DNA of 64,000 nt from an uncultured virus (IMG/VR IMGVR_UViG_3300028797_000153) (IMGVR_UViG_3300028797_000153); one strand, 5' to 3'. Positions 1 through 43,295 are shown, counted from the first letter of the stretch. Made by a program: numbers and translations. The notes: generated from the sequence alone by a model not told the origin.

Positions 1-10
1 CCACCATTAT

Positions 11-85
11 GGGCCGATAGTTTAATTGGGAAAACACCCGCCCTGCAAGCGGGAGTTACGGGTTCAATTCCCGCCGTGTCCACCA
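11..85 (+). tRNA. tRNA-Ala(TGC)
   Basis: Cloverleaf, anticodon loop CC-TGC-AA (C33), G3:U70, CCA end. Confidence 0.85.
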
Positions 86-90
86 TTAAT

Positions 91-165
91 GCCCCTGTAG
101 TATAATGGCTATTACAGTTGTCTTGTAAACATCAGAAGGCCGTTCGATTCGACCCTGGGGCACCA
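91..165 (+). tRNA. tRNA-Thr(TGT)
   Basis: Cloverleaf, loop CTTGTAA, CCA. Confidence 0.9.
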
Positions 166-170
166 TATAT

Positions 171-247
171 CCGGGATTGGCTCAGTTTGGTAGAGCACTT
201 GATTTGGGATCAAGGGGTCAAAAGTTCAAATCTTTTATCTCGGGCCA
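171..247 (+). tRNA. tRNA-Pro(TGG)
   Basis: Cloverleaf, loop TTTGGGA, CCA. Confidence 0.9.
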
Positions 248-252
248 TAAAT

Positions 253-328
253 GGGGCCATAGCTCAATTGGGAGAGCGCCACATTAGCATTGTGGAGGTT
301 GCGAGATCGTCCCTCGTTGGTTCCACCA
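253..328 (+). tRNA. tRNA-Ala(AGC), A34
   Basis: Cloverleaf, loop TTAGCAT, atypical T-loop ATCGTCC, CCA. Confidence 0.85.
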
Positions 329-332
329 TTAT

Positions 333-451
333 AGAACCTGTGCTTATTTCTAATAGGGCAAGCAGGTTGTCGCTGGTTCGAATCCAGCCTTCCCAACCAT
401 TATCGGGAAGTAGCTCAGTTGGCAGAGCACCCGCAAAATATTAGCCAGGTC
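333..451 (+). ncRNA. Y-RNA-like module 1 with circularly permuted tRNA body
   Basis: ACCTG-T-GCT-TATTTCT ... AGC-CAGGT closing stem; inside: T arm, CTTCCCA-ACCA, spacer, CGGGAAG, D arm. Confidence 0.8.
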
Positions 452-456
452 AAATT

Positions 457-532
457 GCACTCTTAGCTCAGCTGGGAGAGCGACTGCTCGACGTGCAGTA
501 GGTCATAGGTCCGAGCCCTATAGAGTGCACCA
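457..532 (+). tRNA. tRNA-Val(GAC)
   Basis: Cloverleaf, loop TC-GAC-GT (atypical), CCA. Confidence 0.85.
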
Positions 533-559
533 TTAAATTCATAGAAGGAGAAAAAGATT

Positions 560-640
560 ATGATGAATTTAACCAAAAAGATTAAAAATATAAGAAAAAC
601 CAAAAGAATTGGTTTCTTTCATCATGGCTTAATTAGTTAG
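560..640 (+). CDS. Leader peptide 1 (Lys/Arg-rich, 26 aa) MMNLTKKIKNIRKTKRIGFFHHGLIS
   Basis: AAGGAG RBS; followed by terminator; 3' end complementary to terminator 5' arm. Confidence 0.75.
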   Translation: MMNLTKKIKNIRKTKRIGFFHHGLIS

Positions 641-663
641 TAAAAAACTTAAATTAATAGTTT

Positions 664-698
664 ATGCTGGGTAGTTAAGTCTGCTCAGCATTTTTATT
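664..698 (+). terminator. Attenuator terminator 1
   Basis: ATGCTGGGTAG/CTGCTCAGCAT 11-bp stem + T tract. Confidence 0.8.
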
Positions 699-703
699 AA
701 ATT

Positions 704-780
704 GCCCCCATAACTCAACTGGATAGAGTAACGGTCTTCTAAACCGTAAGTTGAAGGTCCGAGTCCTTCTGGGGGCGCCA
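704..780 (+). tRNA. tRNA-Arg(TCT)
   Basis: Cloverleaf, loop CTTCTAA, CCA. Confidence 0.92.
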
Positions 781-782
781 TT

Positions 783-841
783 AGAGCCTATACTTATTTC
801 TAGCTTCAAGCAAACAACTTTTAATTGTTCATAGTTAGGCC
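783..841 (+). ncRNA. Y-RNA-like module 2 carrying a Lys(UUU) anticodon stem-loop
   Basis: GCCTA-T-ACT-TATTTCT ... AGT-TAGGC; internal AACAA-CTTTTAA-TTGTT. Confidence 0.75.
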
Positions 842-845
842 ATAT

Positions 846-923
846 GGGTCCATAACTCAGTTGGATTAGAGTACGAAACTTTTAATTTCGGAGTCGAGAG
901 TTCGAGTCTCTCTGGACCCACCA
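846..923 (+). tRNA. tRNA-Lys(TTT)
   Basis: Cloverleaf, loop CTTTTAA, CCA. Confidence 0.92.
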
Positions 924-927
924 ATAT

Positions 928-1005
928 GCACCCTTAGCTCAGTTGGCTAGCAGCACTACACTTTTAATGTAGGGGTCCTGGGTTCGAGTCCCAGAGGGTG
1001 CACCA
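928..1005 (+). tRNA. tRNA-Lys(TTT), second divergent copy
   Basis: Cloverleaf, loop CTTTTAA, CCA. Confidence 0.9.
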
Positions 1006-1008
1006 TAT

Positions 1009-1085
1009 ACCTCCTTAACTCAACTGGTTAGAGTACTTGCCTCTTAAGCATGGAGTTCTGGGTTCGAGTCCCAGAGGAGGTACCA
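1009..1085 (+). tRNA. tRNA-Lys(CTT)
   Basis: Cloverleaf, loop CTCTTAA, CCA. Confidence 0.9.
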
Positions 1086-1100
1086 TTAAAATAAATATAT

Positions 1101-1110
1101 TGTATAATAT
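1101..1110 (+). promoter_or_regulatory. TGTATAATA -10 promoter motif (host sigma-A type); further copies near 1339, 2083, 3022, 5883, 8227, 9605, 11971, 15183, 18297, 19295, 22645, 26165, 34252, 43265
   Basis: Recurrent intergenic motif containing the TATAAT consensus, often just after a terminator and before a gene. Confidence 0.75.
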
Positions 1111-1115
1111 ATTAT

Positions 1116-1191
1116 GCCGGCTTAGCTCAGCTGTTAGAGCAACGCACTAGTAATGCGTAGGTCGGGGGTTAGAGTCCCTCAGCCGGCACCA
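1116..1191 (+). tRNA. tRNA-Thr(AGT), A34
   Basis: Cloverleaf, loop CTAGTAA, T-loop TTAGAGT, CCA. Confidence 0.88.
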
Positions 1192-1193
1192 TC

Positions 1194-1302
1194 AGAGCCC
1201 ATGCTTATTTCTTTCGGCTTCTAACCGGGTGGTCGTTGGTTCGAATCCAACCGTTCCAGTTGGAACGTAGCTCAGTGGGAGAGCACCTTATTTAGCTGGG
1301 CC
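1194..1302 (+). ncRNA. Y-RNA-like module 3: complete circularly permuted tRNA-Arg(UCU) mimic
   Basis: GCCCA-T-GCT ... AGC-TGGGC stem; order anticodon arm (CTTCTAA), T arm, loop-closed acceptor CGTTCCA/TGGAACG, D arm. Confidence 0.85.
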
Positions 1303-1355
1303 AAAACTAAAAAACTATATTATTTTAAGATTTTTCAATGTATAATATAGTGCAT

Positions 1356-1430
1356 CCTCCTGTAGCTCAACAGTTAGAGCGGGCGCCTTATAAGCGTCAT
1401 ACCTTGGTGCGACTCCAGGCAGGAGGACCA
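1356..1430 (+). tRNA. tRNA-Ile(TAT)
   Basis: Cloverleaf, loop CTTATAA, CCA. Confidence 0.85.
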
Positions 1431-1446
1431 ATAATAAAAAATATAT

Positions 1447-1460
1447 GCTAAATTAAAATG
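1447..1460 (+). promoter_or_regulatory. GCTAAATTA motif, putative phage-specific (late) promoter; also at 2114, 14832, 29248, 34777, 41389, 47883, 47979, 51501, 55207, 61929
   Basis: 11 exact intergenic copies seen, mostly at starts of virion-gene operons. Confidence 0.7.
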
Positions 1461-1475
1461 CGAGGAGAGAACAAA

Positions 1476-1562
1476 ATGATGATTAGAAGAAGTTATCAAT
1501 TGAGCCAATTATCAGGTTTATGTGGTCATAACCAATTTTTGTTTTACTCCAATCGCGATTAA
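1476..1562 (+). CDS. Leader peptide 2 (Gln/Leu codons, 28 aa) MMIRRSYQLSQLSGLCGHNQFLFYSNRD
   Basis: GAGGAG RBS; TCCAATCGC (1548-1556) complementary to terminator arm GCGATTGGA. Confidence 0.75.
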   Translation: MMIRRSYQLSQLSGLCGHNQFLFYSNRD

Positions 1563-1594
1563 ATAGAATAAGCTTAAAGTATAATATATAATTT

Positions 1595-1633
1595 AATGAG
1601 CAGCGATTGGAAAAATTGTTGCTCATTTTATTT
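1595..1633 (+). terminator. Attenuator terminator 2
   Basis: AATGAGCAGCGATT/AATTGTTGCTCATT 14-bp stem + T-rich tail. Confidence 0.8.
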
Positions 1634-1659
1634 ACAAAGCAAAAATTCTATGGTATAAT
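1631..1659 (+). promoter_or_regulatory. Sigma-A-type promoter
   Basis: TTTACA-17 nt-TATAAT with upstream TG. Confidence 0.7.
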
Positions 1660-1668
1660 ATTAAATAC

Positions 1669-1743
1669 AGGGAAGTAGCCAAGTGGTAAGGCATGAGACT
1701 TTGACTCTCACATTCGAAGGTTCGACCCCTTCCTTCCCTGCCA
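1669..1743 (+). tRNA. tRNA-Gln(TTG)
   Basis: Cloverleaf, loop CTTTGAC, CCA. Confidence 0.92.
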
Positions 1744-1745
1744 AT

Positions 1746-1830
1746 GCTCTGGTGGTGGAACTGGCATACACATGGCACTTAAAATGCCACGCCGTAAGGA
1801 TTGAGAGTTCAAATCTCTCCCGGAGCACCA
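1746..1830 (+). tRNA. tRNA-Leu(TAA)
   Basis: Cloverleaf with long variable arm, loop CTTAAAA. Confidence 0.92.
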
Positions 1831-1834
1831 TTAT

Positions 1835-1911
1835 GCTCCTCTAGCCCAACTGGCAGAGGCAATAAGCTCAAAACTTATTCAGTCTGAGTTCGAATCTCAG
1901 GGGGAGTACCA
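1835..1911 (+). tRNA. tRNA-Leu(CAA), short variable loop
   Basis: Cloverleaf, loop CTCAAAA, CCA. Confidence 0.85.
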
Positions 1912-1913
1912 TA

Positions 1914-2035
1914 AGAGCCTATGCTTATTTCTTAAGGACTGAAAATCCGCGTGTAGGTGGTTCAACTCCATCCCTTCCCGCCAAATATTTGGGAAGTGTA
2001 GCTCACCGGTAGAGCAGCGAACTATTAGCTAGGCC
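1914..2035 (+). ncRNA. Y-RNA-like module 4: circularly permuted tRNA-Phe(GAA) mimic
   Basis: GCCTA-T-GCT ... AGC-TAGGC; GGA-CTGAAAA-TCC, T arm, CTTCCC-GCCA, spacer, GGGAAG, D arm. Confidence 0.85.
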
Positions 2036-2152
2036 AAAAAATAAAAAATTTCAGAAATATATTTACAATTAATTAAAAATGTTGTATAATATATGTGAGC
2101 GTTAAAAATATACGCTAAATTATAATGGCGCAAAGCTAGGAAGGAAAAGATT

Positions 2153-2269
2153 ATGCAAAAACTATCTATCATGTCCCTTAATCGTGAACATAGTGATTCA
2201 GTATATTTCGGTTGCTGGAATATTTTTGCTACCATCGGATCATCTAGTTTTGAGCAGGTTAATGAATAA
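2153..2269 (+). CDS. Leader peptide 3 (38 aa) MQKLSIMSLNREHSDSVYFGCWNIFATIGSSSFEQVNE
   Basis: AGGAAGGA RBS; 2235-2250 pairs 16 bp with 2297-2312 (terminator 5' arm). Confidence 0.75.
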   Translation: MQKLSIMSLNREHSDSVYFGCWNIFATIGSSSFEQVNE

Positions 2270-2301
2270 ATAAATTAAAAACATTAACAAAAAATGAAAT
2301 T

Positions 2302-2332
2302 AGGTGGTCTGAATAAGATCACCTTTTATTTT
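2302..2332 (+). terminator. Attenuator terminator 3
   Basis: AGGTGGTCT/AGATCACCT stem + TTTATTTT. Confidence 0.8.
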
Positions 2333-2335
2333 ACT

Positions 2336-2421
2336 GGGTAGGTGGTAGAGTGGTCAATTACACCTGACTGTAAATCAGGCGCCACAGGCTTACGGTGGTT
2401 CGAATCCATCCCTGCCCACCA
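2336..2421 (+). tRNA. tRNA-Tyr(GTA)
   Basis: Cloverleaf, long variable arm, loop CTGTAAA. Confidence 0.92.
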
Positions 2422-2426
2422 GATAT

Positions 2427-2502
2427 GTGGACGTGAATCTGACGGTTTAGATGCTAGTCTGTGAAACTAGATTACTGAGTTCAACTCTCAGACATCCACC
2501 CA
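2427..2502 (+). tRNA. tRNA-His(GTG) with encoded G-1
   Basis: Loop CTGTGAA; G2427 opposite discriminator C. Confidence 0.85.
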
Positions 2503-2506
2503 AAAT

Positions 2507-2596
2507 GGTCTATTAGCTCAGTCTGGTAGAGCGGCCGACCAAAGTGTCGGTGACAAACAGCGCGCGAGTGCATTGGTTCAAATCCAATATAGACCA
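2507..2596 (+). tRNA. Atypical tRNA-like gene (8-nt anticodon loop CCAAAGTG, long unpaired variable region, no encoded CCA)
   Basis: GGTCTAT/ATAGACC acceptor, normal D and T arms. Confidence 0.65.
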
Positions 2597-2604
2597 TCGT
2601 ATAT

Positions 2605-2679
2605 GCTCCCATAGACAAGCGGTTAAGTCATGCGCCTTTCACGCGTATATCGCCGGTTCGAATCCGACTGGGAGTACCA
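2605..2679 (+). tRNA. tRNA-Glu(TTC)
   Basis: Cloverleaf, loop CTTTCAC. Confidence 0.9.
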
Positions 2680-2683
2680 AAAT

Positions 2684-2760
2684 GGGTCATTAGCTCAGCT
2701 GGTGGTAGCGACTGACTGTTAATCAGTAGGCCGAAGGTTCAAGTCCTTCATGACCCGCCA
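2684..2760 (+). tRNA. tRNA-Asn(GTT)
   Basis: Cloverleaf, loop CTGTTAA. Confidence 0.92.
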
Positions 2761-2764
2761 ATTT

Positions 2765-2838
2765 CCAGGCATAACTCAATGGTAGAGTGCACGACTGATA
2801 ATCGTGATATCTTAGTTCAATTCTAGGTGCCTGGACCA
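2765..2838 (+). tRNA. tRNA-Ile(GAT)
   Basis: Cloverleaf, loop CTGATAA. Confidence 0.9.
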
Positions 2839-2841
2839 TAT

Positions 2842-2915
2842 AGGAGTTTGGTATATTGGCCGTGCCTTGGTCTCCAAAACCAATGAAGTGAGTTCGATTC
2901 TTACAACTCCTGCCA
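2842..2915 (+). tRNA. tRNA-Trp(CCA)
   Basis: Cloverleaf, loop CTCCAAA. Confidence 0.88.
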
Positions 2916-2917
2916 AT

Positions 2918-2996
2918 GGCCCTGTAGCTCAGCCGTGGTGAGAGCACTGGTCTGAAAAACCAGGTGTCGGCGGTTCGACTCCGCCTGGGGCCACCA
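2918..2996 (+). tRNA. tRNA-Phe(GAA)
   Basis: Cloverleaf, loop CTGAAAA. Confidence 0.92.
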
Positions 2997-3046
2997 AATA
3001 GTTAATTTATTATAGATTAACTGTATAATATTATGTATTGCAACAT

Positions 3047-3123
3047 TGCGGGGAAGTGTAACGGTTTGCATCTGAGGCTCATAACCTCAGGGTAGTGAGG
3101 TTCAACTCCCACCCCCGCGACCA
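3047..3123 (+). tRNA. tRNA-Met(CAT), initiator-like
   Basis: TGCGGGG/CCCCGCG acceptor with weak 1:72 pair, loop CTCATAA. Confidence 0.82.
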
Positions 3124-3199
3124 GGACCGTTGGTGTAGCGGTTTACATGTCACACTGTCACTGTGAAGATGACGGGTTCGACTCCCGTACGGTCCGCCA
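3124..3199 (+). tRNA. tRNA-Asp(GTC)
   Basis: Cloverleaf, loop CTGTCAC. Confidence 0.92.
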
Positions 3200-3202
3200 C
3201 TT

Positions 3203-3287
3203 AGAGCCTATACTTATTTCTTAATGGTTATAGAAGGTTCGATTCCTTCACCGCCCTCTAACCCAGGGCAGTGATATTAGTTAGGCC
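3203..3287 (+). ncRNA. Y-RNA-like module 5 (T arm + acceptor-like hairpin)
   Basis: GCCTA-T-ACT ... AGT-TAGGC; GAAGG-TTCGATT-CCTTC then GCCCT/AGGGC. Confidence 0.75.
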
Positions 3288-3349
3288 AAAAAATTATTAT
3301 TTATAAAGGAGATTAAGTTTATGTAAGTATTAAAAAGGAGGGCATAACA

Positions 3350-3601
3350 ATGAGTTATAGCCGCAAACAATTTGATAAACATAAACTTAAAAAACTTGCC
3401 CATGATAGCTGTAATGGCTGGAAAGGCGGAGCTTATTATGACAGAAGAAAAACCTGTTATAGACGCTACTGGAAAAGTCATGGACATACTTCAAGATATA
3501 CTTATTATAAAAAGTATTATCACAAAAGAATGCGAAGATTTATTAACAAGTATGGTTGGTATTCTAAAAAGGAATTTGATATAATCTGGACTTGTTGGTA
3601 A
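3350..3601 (+). CDS. Small basic hypothetical protein
   Basis: AGGAGG RBS, 83 aa, K/R/Y-rich. Confidence 0.7.
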   Translation: MSYSRKQFDKHKLKKLAHDSCNGWKGGAYYDRRKTCYRRYWKSHGHTSRYTYYKKYYHKRMRRFINKYGWYSKKEFDIIWTCW

Positions 3602-3608
3602 AATAATT

Positions 3609-3684
3609 AGCTGGGTGGCCAAGTGGTTAAGGCACAAAGTTCATACCTTTGGGATCGTCAGTTCAAATCTGACCCCAGCTACCA
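3609..3684 (+). tRNA. tRNA-Met(CAT) (elongator Met or Ile2)
   Basis: Cloverleaf, loop TTCATAC. Confidence 0.82.
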
Positions 3685-3686
3685 TC

Positions 3687-3748
3687 AGAGCCGATACTTA
3701 TTTCTGTCTAGAGACAATTTCCTGCCACGAAATCCATATAGTTCGGCC
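3687..3748 (+). ncRNA. Y-RNA-like module 6 carrying a Gly(GCC) anticodon stem-loop
   Basis: GCCGA-T-ACT ... AGT-TCGGC; internal ATTTC-CTGCCAC-GAAAT. Confidence 0.75.
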
Positions 3749-3756
3749 AATAATAT

Positions 3757-3830
3757 GGCTTCTTAGTTTAAAAGGAAAACTGGATCCTTACAAGATCAGG
3801 ACGGTGGAGCGTTACCATCAGAGGCCACCA
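3757..3830 (+). tRNA. tRNA-Val(TAC)
   Basis: Loop CTTACAA, atypical T-loop AGCGTTA, CCA. Confidence 0.8.
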
Positions 3831-3835
3831 AATAT

Positions 3836-3910
3836 GCGGACGTAGGACAATGGTTAGTCCACTAGCTTGCCATGCTAGATATACGGGTTCGATTCCCGCC
3901 GTCCGCTCCA
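3836..3910 (+). tRNA. tRNA-Gly(GCC)
   Basis: Cloverleaf, loop TTGCCAT. Confidence 0.92.
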
Positions 3911-3915
3911 CCGAA

Positions 3916-4049
3916 GTGACTCTTCCTTATATCGTAAAGAATAAGCGGGTATTGCTTACCTGGGTCCAAAGCAACGGTTAAGCTGGCATTACCGAGAGTG
4001 CCAGAGAAGGTGTCTGTGGTTCACCTGAGGAGTTAGTCACCAAACCACA
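3916..4049 (+). ncRNA. Unidentified multibranch RNA with 3' pseudoknot
   Basis: GTGAC/GTCAC closure, four internal hairpins, loop TGTGGTT pairs with 3' AACCACA. Confidence 0.6.
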
Positions 4050-4053
4050 ATAC

Positions 4054-4128
4054 GCGGGTATCGTCCAATGGTTAGGGCCTCTGCCTTCCAAGCAGAAGAT
4101 ACCGGTTCGACTCCGGCTACCCGCTCCA
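4054..4128 (+). tRNA. tRNA-Gly(TCC)
   Basis: Cloverleaf, loop CTTCCAA. Confidence 0.92.
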
Positions 4129-4155
4129 TACTAAAAATAATTAAGGAGAAAAAGT

Positions 4156-4251
4156 ATGAAAACAATGAATTCACGAAGTCTAAGTTGTGGTCGCTGTAGT
4201 AGCAGTTGTTTTCATTCACTCAATTTTCTCCCAGTAGCTCAATCGGATTAG
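4156..4251 (+). CDS. Leader peptide 4 (Ser/Cys/Arg-rich, 31 aa) MKTMNSRSLSCGRCSSSCFHSLNFLPVAQSD, overlapping tRNA-Arg(ACG)
   Basis: AAGGAG RBS with the same AGGAGAAAAAG context as leader 1. Confidence 0.65.
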   Translation: MKTMNSRSLSCGRCSSSCFHSLNFLPVAQSD

Positions 4252-4305
4252 AGCATAACACTACGAATGTTAAGGTTGCAGGTTCAAGTCCTACCTGGGA
4301 GGCCA
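4228..4305 (+). tRNA. tRNA-Arg(ACG)
   Basis: Cloverleaf, loop CTACGAA. Confidence 0.92.
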
Positions 4306-4306
4306 A

Positions 4307-4381
4307 GCTTTGGTAGCCAAGTGGTTAAGGCCTCGGTCTGCAACACCGATATCGCGGGTTCAAATCCCACCCAAAGCTCCA
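4307..4381 (+). tRNA. tRNA-Cys(GCA)
   Basis: Cloverleaf, loop CTGCAAC. Confidence 0.92.
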
Positions 4382-4386
4382 TATTT

Positions 4387-4474
4387 GGAGGCATGGAGTA
4401 ATGGTATCTCAATACCCTGCTAAGGTATCCATCGGGCAACTGATGTCCGCGTTCGAATCGCGGTGCCTCCGCCA
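4387..4474 (+). tRNA. tRNA-Ser(GCT)
   Basis: Long variable arm, loop CTGCTAA. Confidence 0.92.
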
Positions 4475-4489
4475 AATGAAAGGATTTTT

Positions 4490-4795
4490 ATGAAAGTGTA
4501 TTTTATAGCTACAGCAAATAATATTAAAAAAGATAAGCTCGGTTGGATAGACTGGGGCAAATCACACAGAGTTGTTGGCTTTTTTGATAATTTAGAAGAT
4601 GCTAAAAAGGCTGTTGAAGATAATTGGTGTGATCTATATGAAAATGGCTACTATAAATATGCTATTATAGAAGAAAGGGAAGATGGTCTATACTCTACTT
4701 GTGATAATCCTATTTTCTATAAGTGGGAAGATGGTGGCTATAAAAAAATAAAAAGGCCAAGAGCAACTTATGGATTCTGTAATTTCACAATTTAA
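4490..4795 (+). CDS. Hypothetical phage protein
   Basis: GAAAGGA RBS before ATG 4490; the track start lies inside the tRNA. Confidence 0.8.
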   Translation: MKVYFIATANNIKKDKLGWIDWGKSHRVVGFFDNLEDAKKAVEDNWCDLYENGYYKYAIIEEREDGLYSTCDNPIFYKWEDGGYKKIKRPRATYGFCNFTI

Positions 4796-4796
4796 T

Positions 4797-4880
4797 ACCC
4801 AGATGGTGGAATGGTAGACACCCGTGGCTTAGAACCACGTGCCGAAAGGCGTGCAGGTTCAAATCCTGTTCTGGGTACCA
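4797..4880 (+). tRNA. tRNA-Leu(TAG)
   Basis: Long variable arm, loop CTTAGAA. Confidence 0.92.
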
Positions 4881-4900
4881 ATATAATAAAGGACTAATTT

Positions 4901-5653
4901 ATGTATTTTAAAATTCCAGAAGCTTTTATTAGAAACAGACGTGAATTATTTGCATTAATGGTTGCAACAGTTTCATCTATTCATGTAATTCAGCAACAAA
5001 TAGATACAACTAATTTAACTATTTCAGAAATGCAAGAATTTTTAGCTAAAAAAGGCTTTATAAAAGTTGTTCCAGATAAACCTACTACATTACAAGAGCT
5101 AATTAATAAGCTAGATATCGCAAGTACAGCTTTTGTTAAATTAGCAAATAATAAATATATTGGAATAGTTGCAAATACATATTATTATACAGAAAACTTA
5201 GACAGTATAAAAGTTGCTGAATATTATTTAAATACTGAATATGGCCACAATCTTAAATATAAATGTATAAAATGTGGAAATTGTTGTCGTGTATATGGCT
5301 CAAATGGTGGCGTAATATTTTCTGAAGAGGATATTAACAAAATAGAACAAAATACACCATATACAATTCGTGATAAAGTTGTATTGGTATCTAATAAAAG
5401 TAATAAAAAACTATATCATCTTAGCCTTAAAAATAACCAATGTGAGTTCTTAGATAAAGATAATAGTTGTAAGCTAATTAATACATTATCTGTTAATTGC
5501 CAACTACCTGTAATTTGTTATTTATTTAGAGCTGGTCGTGGTGCAGGTATTAATTTCTTTAGCTGCCCAGGTATTGGATTGCCTGATGGTGATAACTGGG
5601 ATATATTAGATGTATTTAATTGGATTGATAAATATTGTAAAGAATATCAATAA
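4901..5653 (+). CDS. YkgJ/CxxCxxCC cysteine-cluster protein
   Basis: KCIKCGNCC ... CEFLDKDNSC ... PVICYLF motifs. Confidence 0.7.
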   Translation: MYFKIPEAFIRNRRELFALMVATVSSIHVIQQQIDTTNLTISEMQEFLAKKGFIKVVPDKPTTLQELINKLDIASTAFVKLANNKYIGIVANTYYYTENLDSIKVAEYYLNTEYGHNLKYKCIKCGNCCRVYGSNGGVIFSEEDINKIEQNTPYTIRDKVVLVSNKSNKKLYHLSLKNNQCEFLDKDNSCKLINTLSVNCQLPVICYLFRAGRGAGINFFSCPGIGLPDGDNWDILDVFNWIDKYCKEYQ

Positions 5654-5654
5654 T

Positions 5655-5737
5655 GCGCAAGTGGTGGAATTGGTATACACGCAGGTCTAAGAAGCCTGTG
5701 CTTCGGCATAAGAGTTCAAGTCTCTTCTTGCGCACCA
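5655..5737 (+). tRNA. tRNA-Leu(AAG), A34
   Basis: Long variable arm, loop CTAAGAA. Confidence 0.9.
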
Positions 5738-5740
5738 TAT

Positions 5741-5827
5741 GGAGGGTTGTGATAATTGGTAGTCGGGCTGTCTTGAAAACAGTTGGGTCGCAAGGCCTTT
5801 AGGGTTCGAGTCCCTAACCCTCCGCCA
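5741..5827 (+). tRNA. tRNA-Ser(TGA)
   Basis: Long variable arm, loop CTTGAAA. Confidence 0.92.
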
Positions 5828-5908
5828 TATAAAAGTTTATTAAAAAATCATATTAAAAGTATGGTTTTTTTCTTTTTATAACTGTATAATATTACGAGGT
5901 GTTTTATT

Positions 5909-6346
5909 ATGGGATTAGATCAATATTTAAGAGCAAAAACAACTAAAAGAGAGTATCAAGGTGCTACTGGTGCTTGTAGTGGCCTTTTTGGTTTGGCACC
6001 AGATGATGAAGGAATGGTTGAAATTGGTTATTGGAGAAAAGCTTATGACCAAGATAACCTTATTTCAAGATATGCTGAAGCTGATAATGGTTGTAATAAT
6101 AGATTAATTAAAAAAGAAGATATTGATAGTATTATTAAAGAAGCTAAACATATTCTTAAAACACATAAGTTTGATAAAGAAGATGGCTTTGATATTACAG
6201 AAAGTACAGAAATTGAAGATTTTATTTCATATAGTACTTGGCAAAGTAAAAGAAAGTGGAAAGATACTATTAGGTTTTTTACAGATGCTAAAACAATTTT
6301 AAAAGAAGATCCAGAAGCAGAGATTTATTACTGCACTTGGTATTAG
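5909..6346 (+). CDS. Conserved phage hypothetical protein
   Basis: MGLDQYL ... EIGYWRK ... IYYCTW pattern; GAGG RBS. Confidence 0.8.
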   Translation: MGLDQYLRAKTTKREYQGATGACSGLFGLAPDDEGMVEIGYWRKAYDQDNLISRYAEADNGCNNRLIKKEDIDSIIKEAKHILKTHKFDKEDGFDITESTEIEDFISYSTWQSKRKWKDTIRFFTDAKTILKEDPEAEIYYCTWY

Positions 6347-6355
6347 GAGTAATTT

Positions 6356-7291
6356 ATGGTTAAAGATGCATTAGGCGATAGAATGAAAGAATACTACGAA
6401 GGAGTTACTAAAACTAAGCTTGTTCGTAGAATGCCTGTTATTATTAGATTAGATGGTTGCCATTTCCATACTTTTACGCGTGGTTTTAGAAAACCTTTTG
6501 ATGAACTTCTTAATAAAACTATGCAAGCAACTATGAAATATCTTTGTGAAAACATCCAGGGAGTAGTTTTAGGATATACACAATCAGATGAAATTACTTT
6601 AATTTTGGTTGATTATGCTAAACTTGAAACATCTGCCTGGTTTGATTATGAAATCCAAAAGATTGTTTCAGTTAGTGCTGCTCTTGCTACATATGCTTTT
6701 AATAAATATTTTAATGAATTTTATCTTTATCAACTTGCTGAAAAATGTGGGGAAACAGATGAATTTGATTTAGTTTATGATAGAGCTCGTAAAAAAGGTG
6801 CTTACTTTGATAGCCGTGCTTTTAATATTCCGAAAGAAGAAGTTACTAATTGTGTTTTATGGCGACAACTTGATGCTGAAAGAAACTCAGTTAACTCATT
6901 AGGGCAAAGCTTATTCCCACATAAAGCTCTTCAAGGATTAAGTTGTAAAGCCCTTAAAGCTAAAATTGAAGAAGAAAAAGGCATTGTTTGGGGCAATCTT
7001 CCTACCGAACAAAAACGTGGAACTTGTTGCATTAAAAACAGGACTTATACTCTTCCTGATGGCCAAGTAGTTAAAGAAAAAGAATATATTAATTATAAAG
7101 GCCACTTTGGAACTTTCTATTTTGATGGTGATGGTTATTATTTCTTTTATAGGGACAATGAATCATATGAAGTCAAAAGCATTAAGCTTGAAGTAAAAGA
7201 GCATGCTGAATGGGTTATTGATAAAGATATTCCAAGATTTATTGATAGCGGCCGTGAATATATTGAAAAACTTATTAATGTAGGAGAATAA
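6356..7291 (+). CDS. Thg1-like (tRNA-His guanylyltransferase / 3'-5' polymerase) protein
   Basis: IIRLDGCHFHTFT, GYTQSDEI, FDSRAF, WRQLDAERNS motifs. Confidence 0.92.
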   Translation: MVKDALGDRMKEYYEGVTKTKLVRRMPVIIRLDGCHFHTFTRGFRKPFDELLNKTMQATMKYLCENIQGVVLGYTQSDEITLILVDYAKLETSAWFDYEIQKIVSVSAALATYAFNKYFNEFYLYQLAEKCGETDEFDLVYDRARKKGAYFDSRAFNIPKEEVTNCVLWRQLDAERNSVNSLGQSLFPHKALQGLSCKALKAKIEEEKGIVWGNLPTEQKRGTCCIKNRTYTLPDGQVVKEKEYINYKGHFGTFYFDGDGYYFFYRDNESYEVKSIKLEVKEHAEWVIDKDIPRFIDSGREYIEKLINVGE

Positions 7292-7294
7292 TCT

Positions 7295-7513
7295 ATGGAA
7301 GATAATGTTATAAGAGTTGAATCATCAGTTTCATTTGGAACACTTAGCTGGATTGTTTGGGTAGTGTTTATGATTTTATATTATGGAACAGGAACAATTG
7401 CTCATTGGCCAGTTTTTTGGATTTGGTTTCCATTCTGGCTCCCACTTGCTATTGGTGGTTTAGGTTTATTACTTTGGCTTATATTATTTATTATTATTAA
7501 AGTAACAGAATAG
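7295..7513 (+). CDS. Small two-TM membrane protein
   Basis: Hydrophobic, W-rich, 72 aa. Confidence 0.75.
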   Translation: MEDNVIRVESSVSFGTLSWIVWVVFMILYYGTGTIAHWPVFWIWFPFWLPLAIGGLGLLLWLILFIIIKVTE

Positions 7514-7521
7514 GTAAAAAT

Positions 7522-8121
7522 ATGGCATTATTAAAACATTTACATACAGTTGGTAAACATAGAAGATACGTTAGAAGTATGTGCTTTAAAATGGGTATTC
7601 CATGGCAAGGCTTAGTTCATGATCTTTCCAAATATTCAATTAAAGAATTAAGTATAGCAAAATATTACACAGGAACAAAGAGCCCACATGCAGCTTGTCG
7701 TGAATTAAAGGGATATAGCCCAAGCTGGATGCATCATTATCATAAAAATAAACATCATTGGCAATTTTGGCTTGATATAGAAGATTGGCCAAATAATGTA
7801 GTTCCAGTTAAAATGCCTTATAAATATGTTATTGAAAGCTTCTGTGATATGGTTGGAGCAAGTAAAGCATATAATCCAAAAAGTTGGAATGAAAGTATGC
7901 CTTGGGATTATTATGAGCAAAAATGTGCAGGTAATCGCCTCATGCACAAAGAATCTGAATACTTGCTTGCGAAACTACTTTGGAATCTTAAAATCCACGG
8001 ACAAAAGAAATTTATAAAGTGGTATAAAGGCGCTAAAAAATATCTAAAAGAAAATTATATAAATGGCTCATTAGAATTTAATGATAATGAAACTTCTATC
8101 TACTTTGAAATAAGAGCTTAA
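7522..8121 (+). CDS. DUF5662-like HD-fold protein
   Basis: HDLSKYS, WMHHYHKNKHHW, MPYKYVIESFCD motifs. Confidence 0.75.
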   Translation: MALLKHLHTVGKHRRYVRSMCFKMGIPWQGLVHDLSKYSIKELSIAKYYTGTKSPHAACRELKGYSPSWMHHYHKNKHHWQFWLDIEDWPNNVVPVKMPYKYVIESFCDMVGASKAYNPKSWNESMPWDYYEQKCAGNRLMHKESEYLLAKLLWNLKIHGQKKFIKWYKGAKKYLKENYINGSLEFNDNETSIYFEIRA

Positions 8122-8251: not shown

Positions 8252-9094
8252 ATGGAAAAAGCTATTGTAGAATTTGGAAAAAGAATGGATGCTGCTGAAG
8301 ATAAGGCTTTACTTGTTGATTATGCTGAAGGCGCAACAAGAGTTTTAGATTTAGGAGCTGGTACTGGTAAGATTTCACGTGATATTGCCGAAAAATGGGG
8401 GGCTCATTGTGATGCAGTTGATATTCAGTTTAAAGATAATTGTCAAAATACAGATAAAGTTACTTACTATGGTATGAGTATTATAGACTTTCTTAGAACA
8501 TATAGTAATAAAAAATATGATTGTATTATTTTGTCTGCTATTTTACATGAATTAGATGCTCACACACTTAACTTTTTGAAAGAATATCTACCAATTATGA
8601 TGATGAAGAACTGTAGAATTCTTATTCGTGAGCCATTTTATGACAGTGCTTTAGGCCCAGTTCAAAAAGAAAATGCAGAAAAGTTTATTGACTTAGTTTC
8701 TAAAAATGTTTCTGCTGATAAAGCCTTTGAATTTTATTTTGCTACAAAGTTAAGTTTAGGTTGCAGTTTATTTAGCCGCCAGATTAACTTTGCTTCATCA
8801 GTAGATTGGGCTAACCTTGCATTTACTATTTCATATGGTGAACAAAGCTGGGAACGTGAAAAACATGAGTTTAGATATGCTTATAGTTTAGACTGGTGTA
8901 AAGATTTCTTCAATTTTACTAATAAAGAATTCCATGATAGTGTAGTTAGACCATTTACAGGTTTTCAAGTTTATCCAGTTTTAGATAGAACATATAAACA
9001 ACATTTTATTAATGTAGGTATTCCAGGTGAAGCTTTTGATTTAATTCAATATACTGGAATGATTGTAATTATTGACTATTCTAAAGGGGAATAA
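8252..9094 (+). CDS. Class I SAM-dependent methyltransferase
   Basis: VLDLGAGTG, YDCIILSAILHE. Confidence 0.85.
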   Translation: MEKAIVEFGKRMDAAEDKALLVDYAEGATRVLDLGAGTGKISRDIAEKWGAHCDAVDIQFKDNCQNTDKVTYYGMSIIDFLRTYSNKKYDCIILSAILHELDAHTLNFLKEYLPIMMMKNCRILIREPFYDSALGPVQKENAEKFIDLVSKNVSADKAFEFYFATKLSLGCSLFSRQINFASSVDWANLAFTISYGEQSWEREKHEFRYAYSLDWCKDFFNFTNKEFHDSVVRPFTGFQVYPVLDRTYKQHFINVGIPGEAFDLIQYTGMIVIIDYSKGE

Positions 9095-9095
9095 T

Positions 9096-9536
9096 ATGAA
9101 AAGATTAACACCAGAAGAAATAAAATTTGTAAAAGAAACTAAATTTACTCCAACAGTTTATCAATGTGATCAATATTATTTAACTTCATTTGATGACTAC
9201 ACTGACGCTGCTAAAGTTGCTAAAGAGAAGTATGGTGTAGATTTAGATAAATTTATTGCTAAGAATATTGCAGCAAGTTTAAATGATGCTGATGCCATTT
9301 CTTTAGATTATGTTGCTATTTATTTATTATATAGCTTCTTCACAAAAGATGAACTTGAAAAAATGACACCTAAAGAAGCTCTTAGCTGGCTTATGGAGTA
9401 TAGATATTATTTCGGGTTTAGAAAATGGGCTGAACAAGATGCAGCTAATGCTATTTATGATGCTATTGCTATTTATGATGGTGCTGCAGAGTTCTATGAT
9501 CAGCCAGATGGAAATGTTTGGTGTCGTGAAAAATAA
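9096..9536 (+). CDS. Hypothetical protein
   Basis: AAGGGG RBS before ATG 9096. Confidence 0.75.
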   Translation: MKRLTPEEIKFVKETKFTPTVYQCDQYYLTSFDDYTDAAKVAKEKYGVDLDKFIAKNIAASLNDADAISLDYVAIYLLYSFFTKDELEKMTPKEALSWLMEYRYYFGFRKWAEQDAANAIYDAIAIYDGAAEFYDQPDGNVWCREK

Positions 9537-9618
9537 TTTTTTTTGAAAAATTTTAAAATTTATTAGCTAAAATAATAATCAGCAGGAAAAAATAAATTTT
9601 CTGCTGTATAATATATAG

Positions 9619-10780
9619 CTAGTTACGCAGAAATGCGTTTCTATATATAAGATATATTAAGGCCAGACCCGACATGTTGAAATATCTAGGATGAGGTCGC
9701 CAATACAGCCTTAATATATATCCGGACTTATAGCCAGTAAGCCATATGACTAGACATGAGCTTACTCTTGAAAAGGCACAACGGGGTTTGGCAAGTAATA
9801 TCCACAACTAGTTATTAAAACTTGCTGGGCAAAAATAAGCATAAGTCCATTAACAACGAGGGCACGTTGTAAAATAACGAGTTTAGCCGAGTCTTATAGA
9901 CGGTATGGAGTCTGATATAAACCCATGCAACCCACATTCTTTATAGGAGGTATGGAACGCTAGAATAAATACTTTGGGATCTAGCTTATCTGGCCGGCCC
10001 AATGGTTAGTTTGGGGTGCAACTCCTCAACTGGTCTCAAAACACCCATGCAGCAGTAACCAGGGTGAATACTAGAACGTCAAAACGTGAAAGAGCCTGCT
10101 GCATTTAGAGAGTCGGAGTATTTACCGGCTGCGGGTTCGCCCGCTTCTTATTAGAGCTTAAAAAGCACTTGCACCATTATGAACTTCCGAGAAAGCAGAA
10201 GGTGAAGCTGACGAAAAGCCTAAGCGTCTATAAATAAAGTTTATTGGTAAATTTATGAAAACATAGGGTACTCACACCGAATGTTTCTTGCAGCAATGCG
10301 CTTAACTGGTGGGTTGGGGTTAAAGTTGTCTACCAATGTGAGAAAAACAACTGCTCCCTTGGCTAATTTAGTCCGGTAGGGAGATAATATAAGTTTAGGT
10401 GGCCCAGGAGGTATTTATTATTCCCCTCTCCCCAGAAACATAGTGAGGTCACCAGCCTATAATCAGGTATAGCAATGGCACCTGGATGCTATTATCAAAT
10501 AGCATAACTTACGAGGCCGCTTTATGCCGCCGCCCTATTGAGTTTCAACTCTGATAGGTCCAGAGGACGCCGAACGAAAGTTCTACTCCCGAAGAGACGA
10601 CCTAAGCATGTCCTTAAACTGCTTATTATAGAAGGAAAACTATACAACCCGTATGCACCCACTACTACGTTAATAAATGGGTATATTTATTTCCCGGTCC
10701 CTTAACGGCAGTTTCCAGTTTCTGTGAAACTAAATAATATAAGGACTGCAGGCAAATGAAGCAATTCACACTACCTGCTT
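9619..10780 (+). ncRNA. Cluster of small structured RNAs (unidentified)
   Basis: No credible ORF, GC-richer than coding DNA, successive self-closing stems, promoter at 9605. Confidence 0.6.
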
Positions 10781-10782
10781 AT

Positions 10783-11380
10783 TAGTTCCACCACCTGGTA
10801 CTGAATGTTGTTTGATAGTGAGCTGTGGTCAATATAAAAATATTGCAAGAGAAAGACGGCATAACAGCAATAACACAAAATAATCCGTCTCTCATTAATA
10901 TGTGTGTATCTATCAAGTAAGTGGACTACCTCAGCCTATTAAACGTCAGTTTAGCCTAAAGCTATTAATTAATAGGTAATTAACCAAGATTAAAATTGCG
11001 AAAACACTTATAGAAATATAAGCTACTTGGTATAGAGAGTGATAAAGCCAGGGAACTCCAGCCGTTATGGTTGCAAGGAGGGTTGAGCCTCCCGTCTGTT
11101 AATCGAAAAAGCCGGACTTCGCTAGTCTTGACGTTAAAGAACATCGATTCCGTTATAGTGTCTGGTAAAACTACAAAGAGAGCACAGGAGTTATACGTCG
11201 ATAGCCCATTTAGAGCGTTTGTGGGAATTGGGTAAGAAACTAACCGTGGAAATGTGCAGAGTCGGTGAAAACGTATATCCCAAGGCAATGTAAGAATTAT
11301 AGTAGGCCAGCCTGGCTGTTGATCATAGTTCTCGGGTAACGTTGTCCCTGTTCACAATGTCTTGTACTAACATTGTTTTT
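10783..11380 (+). ncRNA. Large ROOL/GOLLD-like ncRNA candidate, apparently circularly permuted
   Basis: ~600 nt with multiple stems and pseudoknots; blocks CTGAATG, ATGTGTGTATC, CTCAGCCT, GTGGAAATGTGCAG resemble ROOL as I recall it. Confidence 0.45.
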
Positions 11381-11475
11381 CTAATAAAATATAATAGGAT
11401 TTATATCCATGGCGATAAATCGTAAATCCTGGTTGCCTTCAAGTCCGAAATGACGTTAAACTATGGAGGTATAGA

Positions 11476-11706
11476 ATGTTAGGATTTACACTTTATGGAA
11501 CAACAGATGTTCCACATGAATATTACGTTTATGCTGATGGTGTAGATTGTAAACCAGCTTACTTCTTAACTAGAAAAGAAGCCGAAATCTACATGAATAA
11601 TTATGCTTCTTCACATGGTATTCAATTAGAATGCACTGAATGTGATAAGCATGAGCGTAAATATTCTAATCATAAGGGTGTTAGATTTTATATTAATAGA
11701 ATTTAA
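11476..11706 (+). CDS. Hypothetical protein
   Basis: GGAGG RBS, 76 aa. Confidence 0.7.
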   Translation: MLGFTLYGTTDVPHEYYVYADGVDCKPAYFLTRKEAEIYMNNYASSHGIQLECTECDKHERKYSNHKGVRFYINRI

Positions 11707-11736
11707 TGCCCTTAACAATTCATTTATAATTAGAAG

Positions 11737-11936
11737 AGATTCTAAATAATATTTACCTGAGCAGTACGACTTATGCCTGAAACCTGATATAAAGGAATCT
11801 TGGGTATGTCAGAAACAACTGACTATGACATAAGCAAAAAGGGCGGAAACTATACTTATTTCTTCAGTGCTTTAGAACAAATGATCTAAAAAGAAATAGG
11901 CTGCAAGTTAGTTAGTTCAAATATTATTTAGAATCT
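11737..11936 (+). ncRNA. ~200 nt RNA closed by a perfect 18-bp stem, containing Y-RNA-like module 7 (11845-11918)
   Basis: AGATTCTAAATAATATTT/AAATATTATTTAGAATCT; AACTA-T-ACT-TATTTCT ... AGT-TAGTT. Confidence 0.65.
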
Positions 11937-12012
11937 TTTTTATTTTTTTATTTACTTTTAAAATTTTTATTGTATAATATTAATGTGGATGAAAACTGAA
12001 AGGATCCACAAT

Positions 12013-12067
12013 AGAGCCGATACTTATTTCTGGTTATTTATAAGAATGTGTTAAAAACAGTTCGGCC
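12013..12067 (+). ncRNA. Y-RNA-like module 8 in the leader of the TerD-fusion gene
   Basis: GCCGA-T-ACT-TATTTCT ... AGT-TCGGC. Confidence 0.75.
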
Positions 12068-12074
12068 AAGTAAT

Positions 12075-12136
12075 TAAACAGCTTTTAATGTGTTAATACT
12101 TGGGGTAACTAGCATATTAAAGGCTGTTTATTTTTT
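12075..12136 (+). terminator. Leader terminator upstream of gene 12148
   Basis: 21-bp stem + TTTTTT immediately before the GGAGG RBS. Confidence 0.8.
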
Positions 12137-12147
12137 CGGAGGTCATT

Positions 12148-43252: not shown

Positions 43253-43295
43253 TTTATAAATTATTGTATAATATAAAAGGAGAGTGGACGAATAG

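Follow-up and report, generated by a model that had tools for sequence, protein, structure and literature searches.

Codon-matched leader reading frames in a phage tRNA array as candidate leader-peptide attenuators of tRNA genes

The amino-acid operons of enterobacteria (trp, his, leu, thr, ilvGMEDA and pheA) are controlled by leader-peptide transcription attenuators, and the pheST attenuator (with its pheM leader) and others act on aminoacyl-tRNA synthetase genes. Here we describe a set of short leader open reading frames (ORFs) in the tRNA array of an uncultured virus, IMGVR_UViG_3300028797_000153, that carry the codons read by the tRNAs encoded directly downstream, most of them followed by an intrinsic terminator. 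Ribosome-mediated attenuation, applied to tRNA genes, is the best explanation of these leaders and is probably, though not securely, the right one. The stretch analyzed (the window) comprises 64,000 nucleotides (nt) of a 273-kb metagenome contig; locus L071 is the same DNA (L071 position minus 3645 gives the window position), and negative coordinates lie upstream of the window. The phage has genes for a capsid protein of the Gp23 type and for a T4-type portal; its nearest cultured capsid relatives (Bacillus SP-15, vB_BceM-HSE3, Listeria LIS04 and a Streptococcus phage) are 27-30% identical. Why large phages carry tRNA arrays, and how such arrays are controlled, is an open question.

Leader ORFs and their codon match to downstream tRNAs

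The array consists of about 35 tRNA genes, all on the + strand between window positions -69 and 5827, and covers all 20 amino acids; 30 of the genes were called in the window by ARAGORN and four more (11-82, 2428-2499, 3047-3120 and 3757-3827) by Rfam. It is organized as five blocks, each preceded by a short ORF led by a Shine-Dalgarno (SD) site (leaders 0-4, Table 1). Leader 0, terminator 0 and the first tRNA of block 0 (Ala-TGC, which straddles the window start) lie upstream of the window. An earlier note on this DNA had proposed that four short ORFs with strong ribosome-binding sites, here leaders 1-4, sense codons and switch on the matching tRNAs behind them. All four ORFs exist, each behind an SD core 7-9 nt before its ATG, and the tRNAs called downstream of each by ARAGORN and Rfam are the same as those in the note's list. 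With leader 0 included, the SD cores sit 7-10 nt before the ATG. The hexamer AAGGAG occurs in five copies on the + strand of the array, every one 7-10 nt before an ATG (those of leaders 0, 1 and 4, of ORF83 and of an ATG-TAA mini-frame), and the long genes of the phage, too, usually have an AGGAG-type core as their ribosome site. The SD site of leader 2 is overlapped by an in-frame ATG at 1458. All five leaders have the short ORF and ribosome site of a leader-peptide attenuator and are presumably translated.

The codons of each leader that are read by the following tRNAs were compared with the codon usage of the phage (12,655 codons) using a binomial test; block limits were set by the analyst, and for leader 1 both the narrower tRNA set of the earlier note and a wider set are given. 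Leader 1, which contains AAA four times, AAG once and AGA twice, plus ACC twice and ATA once, has 11/25 codons matched to all tRNAs up to leader 2 (P = 8e-4), or 7/25 with the narrower set (P = 0.015). Leader 2 (three CAA, two TTA and two TTG) has 7/27 matched (P = 0.006), and leader 4 has the strongest match of all (16/30, P = 1.3e-9). Leader 0, rich in Val, Thr, Pro and Ala, has 10 of its 25 codons matched to its own block (z = 2.9). Codon enrichment is therefore significant for leaders 0, 1, 2 and 4, and leader 3 stands out by coverage only: it holds all eight isotypes of its own block (Y, H, E, N, I, W, F and D; P = 0.054 by simulation). The same measure, each isotype being required at least at the observed minimum count, gave P = 0.013, 0.020, 0.019, 0.054 and 0.004 for leaders 0-4, respectively. 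The claim that each leader carries the codons of the tRNAs directly downstream was thus borne out by count for leaders 1, 2 and 4, and for leader 3 by isotype content.

Overall, the codon match to the downstream tRNAs goes far beyond what chance would give. Among leaders 1-4, the lowest P value for any of the 12 mismatched leader/block pairs was 0.019. In a 5 × 5 matrix of leaders 0-4 by block, the true pairing ranked first of 120 permutations at both the codon and the amino-acid level, the result looked for in the permutation test that the earlier note had suggested; the diagonal codon z values were 2.9, 3.9, 3.2, 0.4 and 8.3 (leaders 0-4) and only 1/20 off-diagonal cells reached P < 0.05. 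The other two reading frames yield fewer matches in 5/5 leaders (for leader 4, 2 and 6 versus 16). Furthermore, the match is at the level of isoacceptors. Both Arg codons of leader 1 are AGA, before Arg-TCT, and those of leader 4 are CGA and CGC, before Arg-ACG; all four Leu codons of leader 2 are TTR (TTA and TTG), before Leu-TAA and Leu-CAA, and all three of leader 4 are CTN (CTA and CTC), before Leu-TAG and Leu-AAG. None of the eight Ser codons in leader 4 is TCT or TCC. Several of the codons placed before their own isoacceptors are rare in the phage (CGA 0.03%, TCG 0.05%, CGC 0.14%, CTC 0.2% and TTG 0.32%).

Leader 0 and two analogous leaders in distant relatives are cases that the attenuator idea predicts beyond the range originally described. 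All loci collected were scanned for a hairpin and T-tract ending at most 25 nt before a tRNA, and leader 0, just upstream of the window and outside the range of the earlier note, was found from this geometry, its terminator being followed by Ala-TGC, an Ala-like tRNA, Thr-TGT, Pro-TGG, Ala-AGC and Val-GAC. The two relatives, G004 and L029, are 50-54% identical in their Thg1 proteins, and their leaders are unrelated in sequence to those described here. In G004, a 34-codon ORF and a terminator precede tRNAs for Pro, Val, Asp, Ile, Leu, Pro, Phe, Met, Tyr and Asn; 18/33 codons are matched (P = 0.005), and all nine isotypes of the 10-tRNA block are present at least twice (P ~1e-4, the null being the composition of the phage studied here). 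In L029, a 35-codon ORF with five Gln and five Lys codons, again with a terminator, precedes Gln-TTG and Lys-CTT (amino-acid-level P = 0.003). The coverage simulations for both relatives used the amino-acid composition of the phage studied here. In a blind list of 36 short ORFs with an SD site and ATG before tRNAs, 9/36 had an amino-acid-level P < 0.05 against the downstream tRNAs, compared with 0/34 against the upstream tRNAs, and the five candidates in which a hairpin separates ORF and tRNA are all members of the leader set.

The earlier note had proposed a check of related phages. Analogues exist in the two distant relatives, their sequences being unrelated to the leaders described here; in the array of the closest relative, G001, no clear leader was seen. 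By Thg1, the best relatives reach 70-74% identity, with a different organization of the tRNA array. Among the sequencing runs, no RNA run containing the stretch was found; contigs from runs X3, X4, X5 and X7 gave short pieces only, mostly of conserved tRNA parts; run X3 is identical over leader 1, and relatives about 85% alike cover the stretch from leader 4 through the Arg and Cys tRNAs. A match of the leader 4 start region to loci L044 and L038 was rejected, as it consists only of an SD context common to ordinary genes of 106 and 45 amino acids. Three further short ORFs with weak SD sites, in the arrays of other phages, carry residues fitting the tRNAs that come next and lack a terminator, as leader 4 does: L023 6741-6797, 14 nt before Arg-TCT and Leu-TAA, with three TTA and three AGA/AGG codons (6/17 codons, P = 0.004); L101 2002-2127, rich in Gly, Ser and Gln, before Gly, Gln, Ser and Trp tRNAs; and L038 704-847, rich in Ser, before Ser-GCT.

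The evidence for codon matching comes from one genome and two analogous relatives, and the leader peptides are short (26-38 amino acids). These small samples, and the lack of enrichment by count in leader 3, would suit the view that the leaders are unremarkable small genes or fortuitous ORFs, that the hairpins behind them are ordinary terminators or stabilize 3' ends, and that the codon match is a coincidence amplified by post hoc choice of blocks. We consider this quite unlikely, given that the true pairing is the best of 120 permutations, that the in-frame matches exceed both off-frames in every leader, that the rule also holds for leader 0 and for the sequence-unrelated leaders of two distant relatives, that the upstream-block controls are flat, and that the rare codons CGA, TCG, CTC and TTG stand exactly before their own isoacceptors.

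Terminators, alternative pairings and promoters

The earlier note had placed an intrinsic terminator after each of leaders 1-3, and a canonical hairpin and T-tract were indeed found behind each; they are the three longest-stemmed + strand sites in the terminator scan. A hairpin and T-tract ending 7-13 nt before the first tRNA also occurs in other phages behind ordinary long genes (the L010 family and L044), so the hairpin alone is not diagnostic, a point in favor of the view that ordinary terminators stand behind coincidental ORFs. The promoter motif of the phage, TGTATAATAT, has 14 exact copies up to position 43265, all on the + strand, and 41 copies with at most one mismatch, compared with 18.8 ± 4.3 in shuffled sequence; the canonical extended -10 element TGNTATAAT was rejected as a phage motif because it is not enriched (7 copies versus 8.8 expected). 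At ordinary gene boundaries a terminator is followed at once by TGTATAATAT (8188-8218/8227, 15153-15178/15183 and 19267-19288/19295). Behind terminators 0, 1 and 3, the tRNA begins 10-13 nt past the hairpin (tRNA-Arg 13 nt after terminator 1 and tRNA-Tyr 12 nt after terminator 3) with no promoter motif between, and therefore block 0, the Arg and three Lys tRNAs of block 1, and the Tyr to Phe tRNAs of block 3 would be made only by readthrough. Leader 0 itself lies behind a promoter at L071 2986-3014. Exact copies of TGTATAATAT within the array include those at 1101-1110, 1339-1348, 1652-1661 and 3022-3031. The -10 hexamer of the motif ends 7-9 nt before the first base of the Thr-AGT, Ile-TAT and Gln tRNAs, which may thus be transcribed almost without a 5' leader.

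The third structural claim, that the distal part of each ORF is complementary to the 5' arm of the terminator, was examined by blocking the 3' arm and comparing the energy gained by pairing of the 5' arm with upstream sequence with that for dinucleotide shuffles of the upstream sequence. In the context of the whole leader, the gain was -11.7 kcal/mol for leader 1 (shuffles -3.9 ± 2.2; fraction as good 0.005), -16.3 kcal/mol for leader 3 (-4.5 ± 2.3; 0/200) and -16.4 kcal/mol for the G004 leader (-7.1 ± 3.0; 0.005). A second test took 120 nt of upstream sequence as context and set the leader terminators against an empirical control, nine ordinary terminators on the + strand of this phage: z was -3.84 for leader 1 (0/300 shuffles), -2.59 for leader 2, -5.02 for leader 3 and -4.71 for G004, and ranged from -1.16 to +1.49 for the ordinary terminators, none of which was significant. 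Thus, in this context 4/6 leader terminators, compared with 0/9 ordinary ones, have a significant alternative pairing with the distal ORF. The complementarity holds in both contexts for leaders 1 and 3; that of leader 2, only 9 base pairs (bp) long, beats shuffles in the 120-nt context only and is marginal. In leader 1, the predicted antiterminator strand consists of the last four codons and the stop codon, which is the classical geometry, and the 17-bp antiterminator helix of leader 3 is the minimum-free-energy fold of the whole leader.

Taken together, the attenuator reading is best supported for leaders 1 and 3, both of which combine an SD-led ORF, a terminator without a promoter and a significant antiterminator; leader 1 is codon-matched as well, and leader 3 by coverage only. 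A number of observations weigh against it, and the interpretation in the earlier note is supported in part only. By count, leader 3 is not enriched (16/37 codons matched, P = 0.39). The terminator of leader 2 is followed by a strong promoter, which is the ordinary boundary layout of the phage and likewise favors the view that the terminators are ordinary ones; the Gln and Leu tRNAs of block 2 are consequently independent of readthrough, and the antiterminator gain of leader 2 in its whole-leader context is not significant (-5.8 kcal/mol versus -3.9 ± 2.0; fraction 0.16). Neither leader 0 nor the L029 leader has a significant antiterminator in either the whole-leader context (-4.4 versus -5.1 ± 2.4 kcal/mol, fraction 0.57, and -6.3 versus -4.2 ± 2.3 kcal/mol, fraction 0.155, respectively) or the 120-nt context (z = +0.16 and -0.40). 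The antiterminator strand lies 16-33 nt ahead of the stop codon in both leader 3 and G004, leaving ~16 nt between its end and the stop; it would not be covered by a ribosome waiting there, and RNA that is not translated would default to readthrough. Thr-AGT, Ile-TAT, Met and Asp escape the gates through promoters inside blocks 1 and 3 (1101, 1339 and 3022), Thr-AGT and Ile-TAT each standing behind its own TGTATAATAT promoter (1101 and 1339), and the Met/Val/Gly/Gly tRNAs (3609-4128) have no matched leader. The terminator scan found no terminator behind leader 4. Finally, no close relative was found by searches with Thg1 in viral and metagenome contigs, with ORF250 and ORF110, or by blastn of the leader regions against 155 loci.

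Because leader 4 lacks a terminator, it cannot act as an attenuator in the form stated by the earlier note, yet its codon match is the strongest of all. In addition, the last 24 nt of its ORF lie inside tRNA-Arg(ACG), and its SD site pairs with the 5' acceptor strand of that tRNA in a fold of leader plus tRNA. Such an arrangement would be expected if the leaders were translated codon sensors whose output is not termination: the position of the ribosome would instead alter RNA processing or stability, for example by governing whether RNase P reaches the first tRNA or whether the precursor is protected, or it would act with the opposite sign. The similar terminator-less ORF at L023 6741-6797 and the missing antiterminators of leader 0 and the L029 leader also speak for this alternative. 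As an account of the leaders it nevertheless seems unlikely to us: canonical terminators stand behind leaders 0, 1 and 3 with no promoter before the tRNAs, and the strong, mutually exclusive pairings of leaders 1, 3 and G004 are not seen at ordinary terminators.

A further alternative is that readthrough is set by something other than the ribosome, either a phage antiterminator protein or direct tRNA binding as in a T-box, with the ORFs being incidental. The need of blocks 0, 1 and 3 for readthrough of strong terminators is compatible with this, as is the presence of several unassigned proteins in or near the array (ORF83, ORF110 and ORF250). However, cmscan of window positions 1-8000 at E <= 1 matched neither the T-box (RF00230) nor another riboswitch model, nor any Rfam leader family (the His, Trp, Leu and Thr leaders, etc.), and lists only tRNA, YrlA, Plastid-ycf2, Tymo_tRNA-like and mascRNA; on L071 2700-3700 its output was limited to tRNA plus two matches at chance level. 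One specifier could not read blocks of 4-10 different tRNAs, and the in-frame, isoacceptor-level codon match would be left unexplained. We therefore regard control by a non-ribosomal factor as very improbable.

Table 1. Coordinates of the leaders, terminators, alternative pairings, promoters and tRNA blocks (window positions unless L071 is named).
Feature	Position	Strand	Details
Leader 0 ORF	L071 3426-3506 = window -219..-139	+	AAGGAG-led, 26 codons, MLRNVTVNVRPTATAKPAFGTFEHAC
Terminator 0	L071 3535-3566 = window -110..-79	+	14-bp
tRNA block 0 (part)	1..532	+	Ala-like 11-82, Thr-TGT, Pro-TGG, Ala-AGC, YrlA-like element 329-456, Val-GAC
Leader 1 ORF	560..640	+	26 amino acids, MMNLTKKIKNIRKTKRIGFFHHGLIS; SD AAGGAG 545-550, 9 nt before ATG
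Leader 1 antiterminator 5' strand (predicted)	627..642	+	Last four codons, stop and 2 nt; pairs with 665-680
Intrinsic terminator 1	664..691	+	11-bp stem, -15.7 kcal/mol, then T-tract TTTTTATT
tRNA block 1	704..1430	+	Arg-TCT, Lys-TTT x2, Lys-CTT, then Thr-AGT and Ile-TAT
Leader 2 ORF	1476..1562	+	28 amino acids; SD GAGGAG 1462-1467
Leader 2 alternative pairing (predicted)	1548-1556 with 1603-1611	+	9 bp only; codons 25-27
Intrinsic terminator 2	1595..1627	+	14-bp stem, -17.2 kcal/mol
Promoter between terminator 2 and tRNA-Gln	1631..1659	+	Strong; TTTACA-17-TATAAT with TG
tRNA block 2	1669..1911	+	Gln-TTG, Leu-TAA, Leu-CAA
Promoter of leader 3 unit	2062..2092	+	TTTACA-17-TATAAT; exact TGTATAATAT at 2083
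Leader 3 ORF	2153..2269	+	38 amino acids; SD AGGAAGGA at 2138-2145
Leader 3 antiterminator 5' strand (predicted)	2235..2251	+	Codons 28-33; pairs with 2296-2312, 17-bp helix
Intrinsic terminator 3	2302..2324	+	9-bp stem, -12.4 kcal/mol
tRNA block 3	2336..3199	+	Tyr, His, odd 93-nt tRNA, Glu, Asn, Ile-GAT, Trp, Phe; promoter 3022; Met-CAT, Asp
Leader 4 ORF	4156..4251	+	31 amino acids, MKTMNSRSLSCGRCSSSCFHSLNFLPVAQSD; SD AAGGAG 4143-4148
tRNA block 4	4228..5827	+	Arg-ACG, Cys-GCA, Ser-GCT, ORF110, Leu-TAG, ORF250 (CxxCxxCC domain), Leu-AAG, Ser-TGA

Neighboring genes and other elements of the array

Directly after the array, at 6356-7291, lies a gene for a Thg1-like enzyme (Pfam E = 3e-30), and positions 15224-17494 encode a single 756-amino-acid fusion of P-loop kinase, calcineurin-type phosphatase and T4 Rnl1-type RNA ligase domains, which we take to be the architecture of bacterial Pnkp RNA-repair enzymes. 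The two look like a tRNA repair toolkit and fit a phage that invests in tRNA supply and repair, which is consistent with, and does not show, an anticodon-nuclease trigger for the leaders. A peptide deformylase is encoded in the same window.

A conserved element recurs seven times in the array, at the ends of tRNA sub-blocks (329-456, 781-845, 1192-1317, 1912-2040, 3200-3295, 3685-3756 and L071 3338-3396). Each starts right after a tRNA CCA with AGAGCCTATRCTTATTTCT and ends with TTAGYTAGGCCAAAA, and the ends form a stem in which four of the eight predicted pairs show compensatory changes and none is broken. In four copies there is a permuted tRNA-like insert (T arm, closed acceptor, D arm), and these are matched by the Rfam YrlA model below threshold (41.7 versus 69 bits); the other three are bare stems. 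A Pfam scan of 40 ORFs, part of those in the window, revealed no Ro60 gene.

At 3306-3601, an AAGGAG and a start-stop mini-frame (ATG TAA, 3321-3326) stand directly before ORF83 (3350-3601), a very basic protein with many Lys, Arg, Tyr and Trp residues, for which Pfam gave no match. It has a tblastn relative in the tRNA array of L023 (41% over 63 amino acids, E = 2e-4), and basic 103-amino-acid ORFs in the L044 and L038 arrays are similar as judged by eye. Upstream, between the promoter at L071 2986-3014 and leader 0, an ORF-free and relatively GC-rich stretch of ~300 nt (L071 3021-3335, window -624..-310) folds better than its shuffles (z = -2.42; 1/100 as good). The stretch has no match in Rfam and may be an uncharacterized RNA heading the array. 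A 143-nt spacer separates two Gly tRNAs (3911-4053), and a 2.6-kb stretch at 9536-12148 has no ORF of at least 120 amino acids, Rfam giving only a chance-level match on 9000-12500.

Some of the tRNAs are themselves unusual. The tRNA of 93 nt at 2506-2598 combines an extended variable arm with an anticodon loop of 6 nt, CAAAGU, for which ARAGORN gives the two-letter anticodon '?(Phe|Leu)(aa)'; it scores 48.4 bits with the Rfam tRNA model. The His(GTG) tRNA at 2428-2499 was called by Rfam only (40.7 bits), its anticodon being a manual reading of the loop; low-threshold ARAGORN gave a different register for 2420-2510, which was rejected in favor of the Rfam call. Three tRNAs other than Arg have A at the wobble position (Ala-AGC 253-328, Thr-AGT 1116-1191 and Leu-AAG 5655-5737). 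Such tRNAs are unusual for bacteria and would need A-to-I editing or read mainly U-ending codons.

Proposed mechanism and comparison with known systems

Under ribosome-mediated attenuation, rapid reading of the test codons would bring the ribosome over the distal ORF while RNA polymerase makes the terminator, such that the hairpin forms and transcription stops. If the test codons are read slowly, because their cognate tRNAs are scarce, uncharged or damaged, the ribosome would lag, the distal ORF would pair with the 5' arm of the terminator and the polymerase would continue into the tRNA genes; the new tRNAs would speed up decoding and close a negative feedback loop. In leader 1, a ribosome at the last codons or the stop would cover 627-642 and allow terminator 1 to form, and one held at the Lys/Arg codons (575-607) would leave this strand free, with transcription of Arg-TCT and the three Lys tRNAs as a result. 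Leader 3 and the G004 leader may instead depend on a closely following ribosome that masks the strand just as the terminator is made, a lagging or absent ribosome giving readthrough. Leader 2 would only add to a promoter-driven block, and leader 4 could sense decoding likewise, its output having to be something other than a terminator. The ORFs and SD sites, the codon match, the terminators without promoters and the alternative pairings of leaders 1 and 3 (weaker in leader 2) are the observed parts of this scheme; that the leaders are translated, and with which sign and to which trigger they respond, is suggested by the anatomy of the locus.

A wider interpretation, which we offer tentatively and hold to be doubtful as it stands, is that the array forms five codon-addressed regulons, each ORF gauging decoding codon by codon and turning on exactly the replacement tRNAs, such that the phage could detect and repair depletion of host tRNAs, for example by anticodon nucleases. 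The Pnkp-like RNA repair enzyme and the Thg1-like enzyme fit this theme of tRNA detection and repair, and the grouping of the blocks (Lys with Arg; Tyr/His/Asn/Asp/Glu and others) may mirror the target sets of anticodon nucleases; it is this context only that points to such nucleases as a possible trigger. If the attenuation mechanism is correct, a leader that reads the codons of its own tRNAs would be a direct feedback sensor of decoding capacity, and would provide a testable handle on when phage tRNAs are needed, be it for a mismatch in codon usage, host shut-off or tRNA-cleaving defenses. As compact, codon-specific stall reporters, the leaders could also be reused as sensors of individual isoacceptors.

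No published account of leader-peptide attenuation of tRNA genes was found in a full-text literature search, the coverage of which largely excludes subscription journals and old papers. A possible leader of the Escherichia coli tRNA-Phe genes was considered and discarded, as K-12 pheV shows none. PMC3082878 mentions a tRNA operon in a different context.

The T-box, like the proposed phage system, is a terminator/antiterminator switch that responds to tRNA status; however, it binds one uncharged tRNA directly, needs no ORF and controls aminoacyl-tRNA synthetase or amino-acid genes, whereas the phage leaders have SD sites and an in-frame codon match. The attenuators of the pheST type are closer, as they too place a gene of the translation apparatus under the control of ribosome stalling at cognate codons, but the pheST product is a charging enzyme for a single amino acid and the phage product is the decoder itself, which would give direct feedback. 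With the attenuators of the amino-acid operons, the phage leaders share the short SD-led ORF with control codons. Leaders 0-3 also have the intrinsic terminator before the regulated genes, and leaders 1 and 3 (leader 2 more weakly) a predicted antiterminator that shares a strand with the terminator, which a ribosome nearing the end of the ORF would mask (over the last codons and the stop of leader 1, or codons 28-33 of leader 3). Like the ilv and thr leaders, the phage leaders are multivalent. They differ in that they would regulate tRNAs rather than biosynthetic enzymes, in that one leader lists up to 8-9 amino acids and five leaders stand in series, and in that their control codons match at the isoacceptor level (AGA versus CGN, TTR versus CTN), which implies that the readout would be the decoding capacity for those codons rather than the supply of amino acids. 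The array would thus apply to tRNA genes the attenuation known from amino-acid operons, with isoacceptor-level sensing and five gates in series as its new features.

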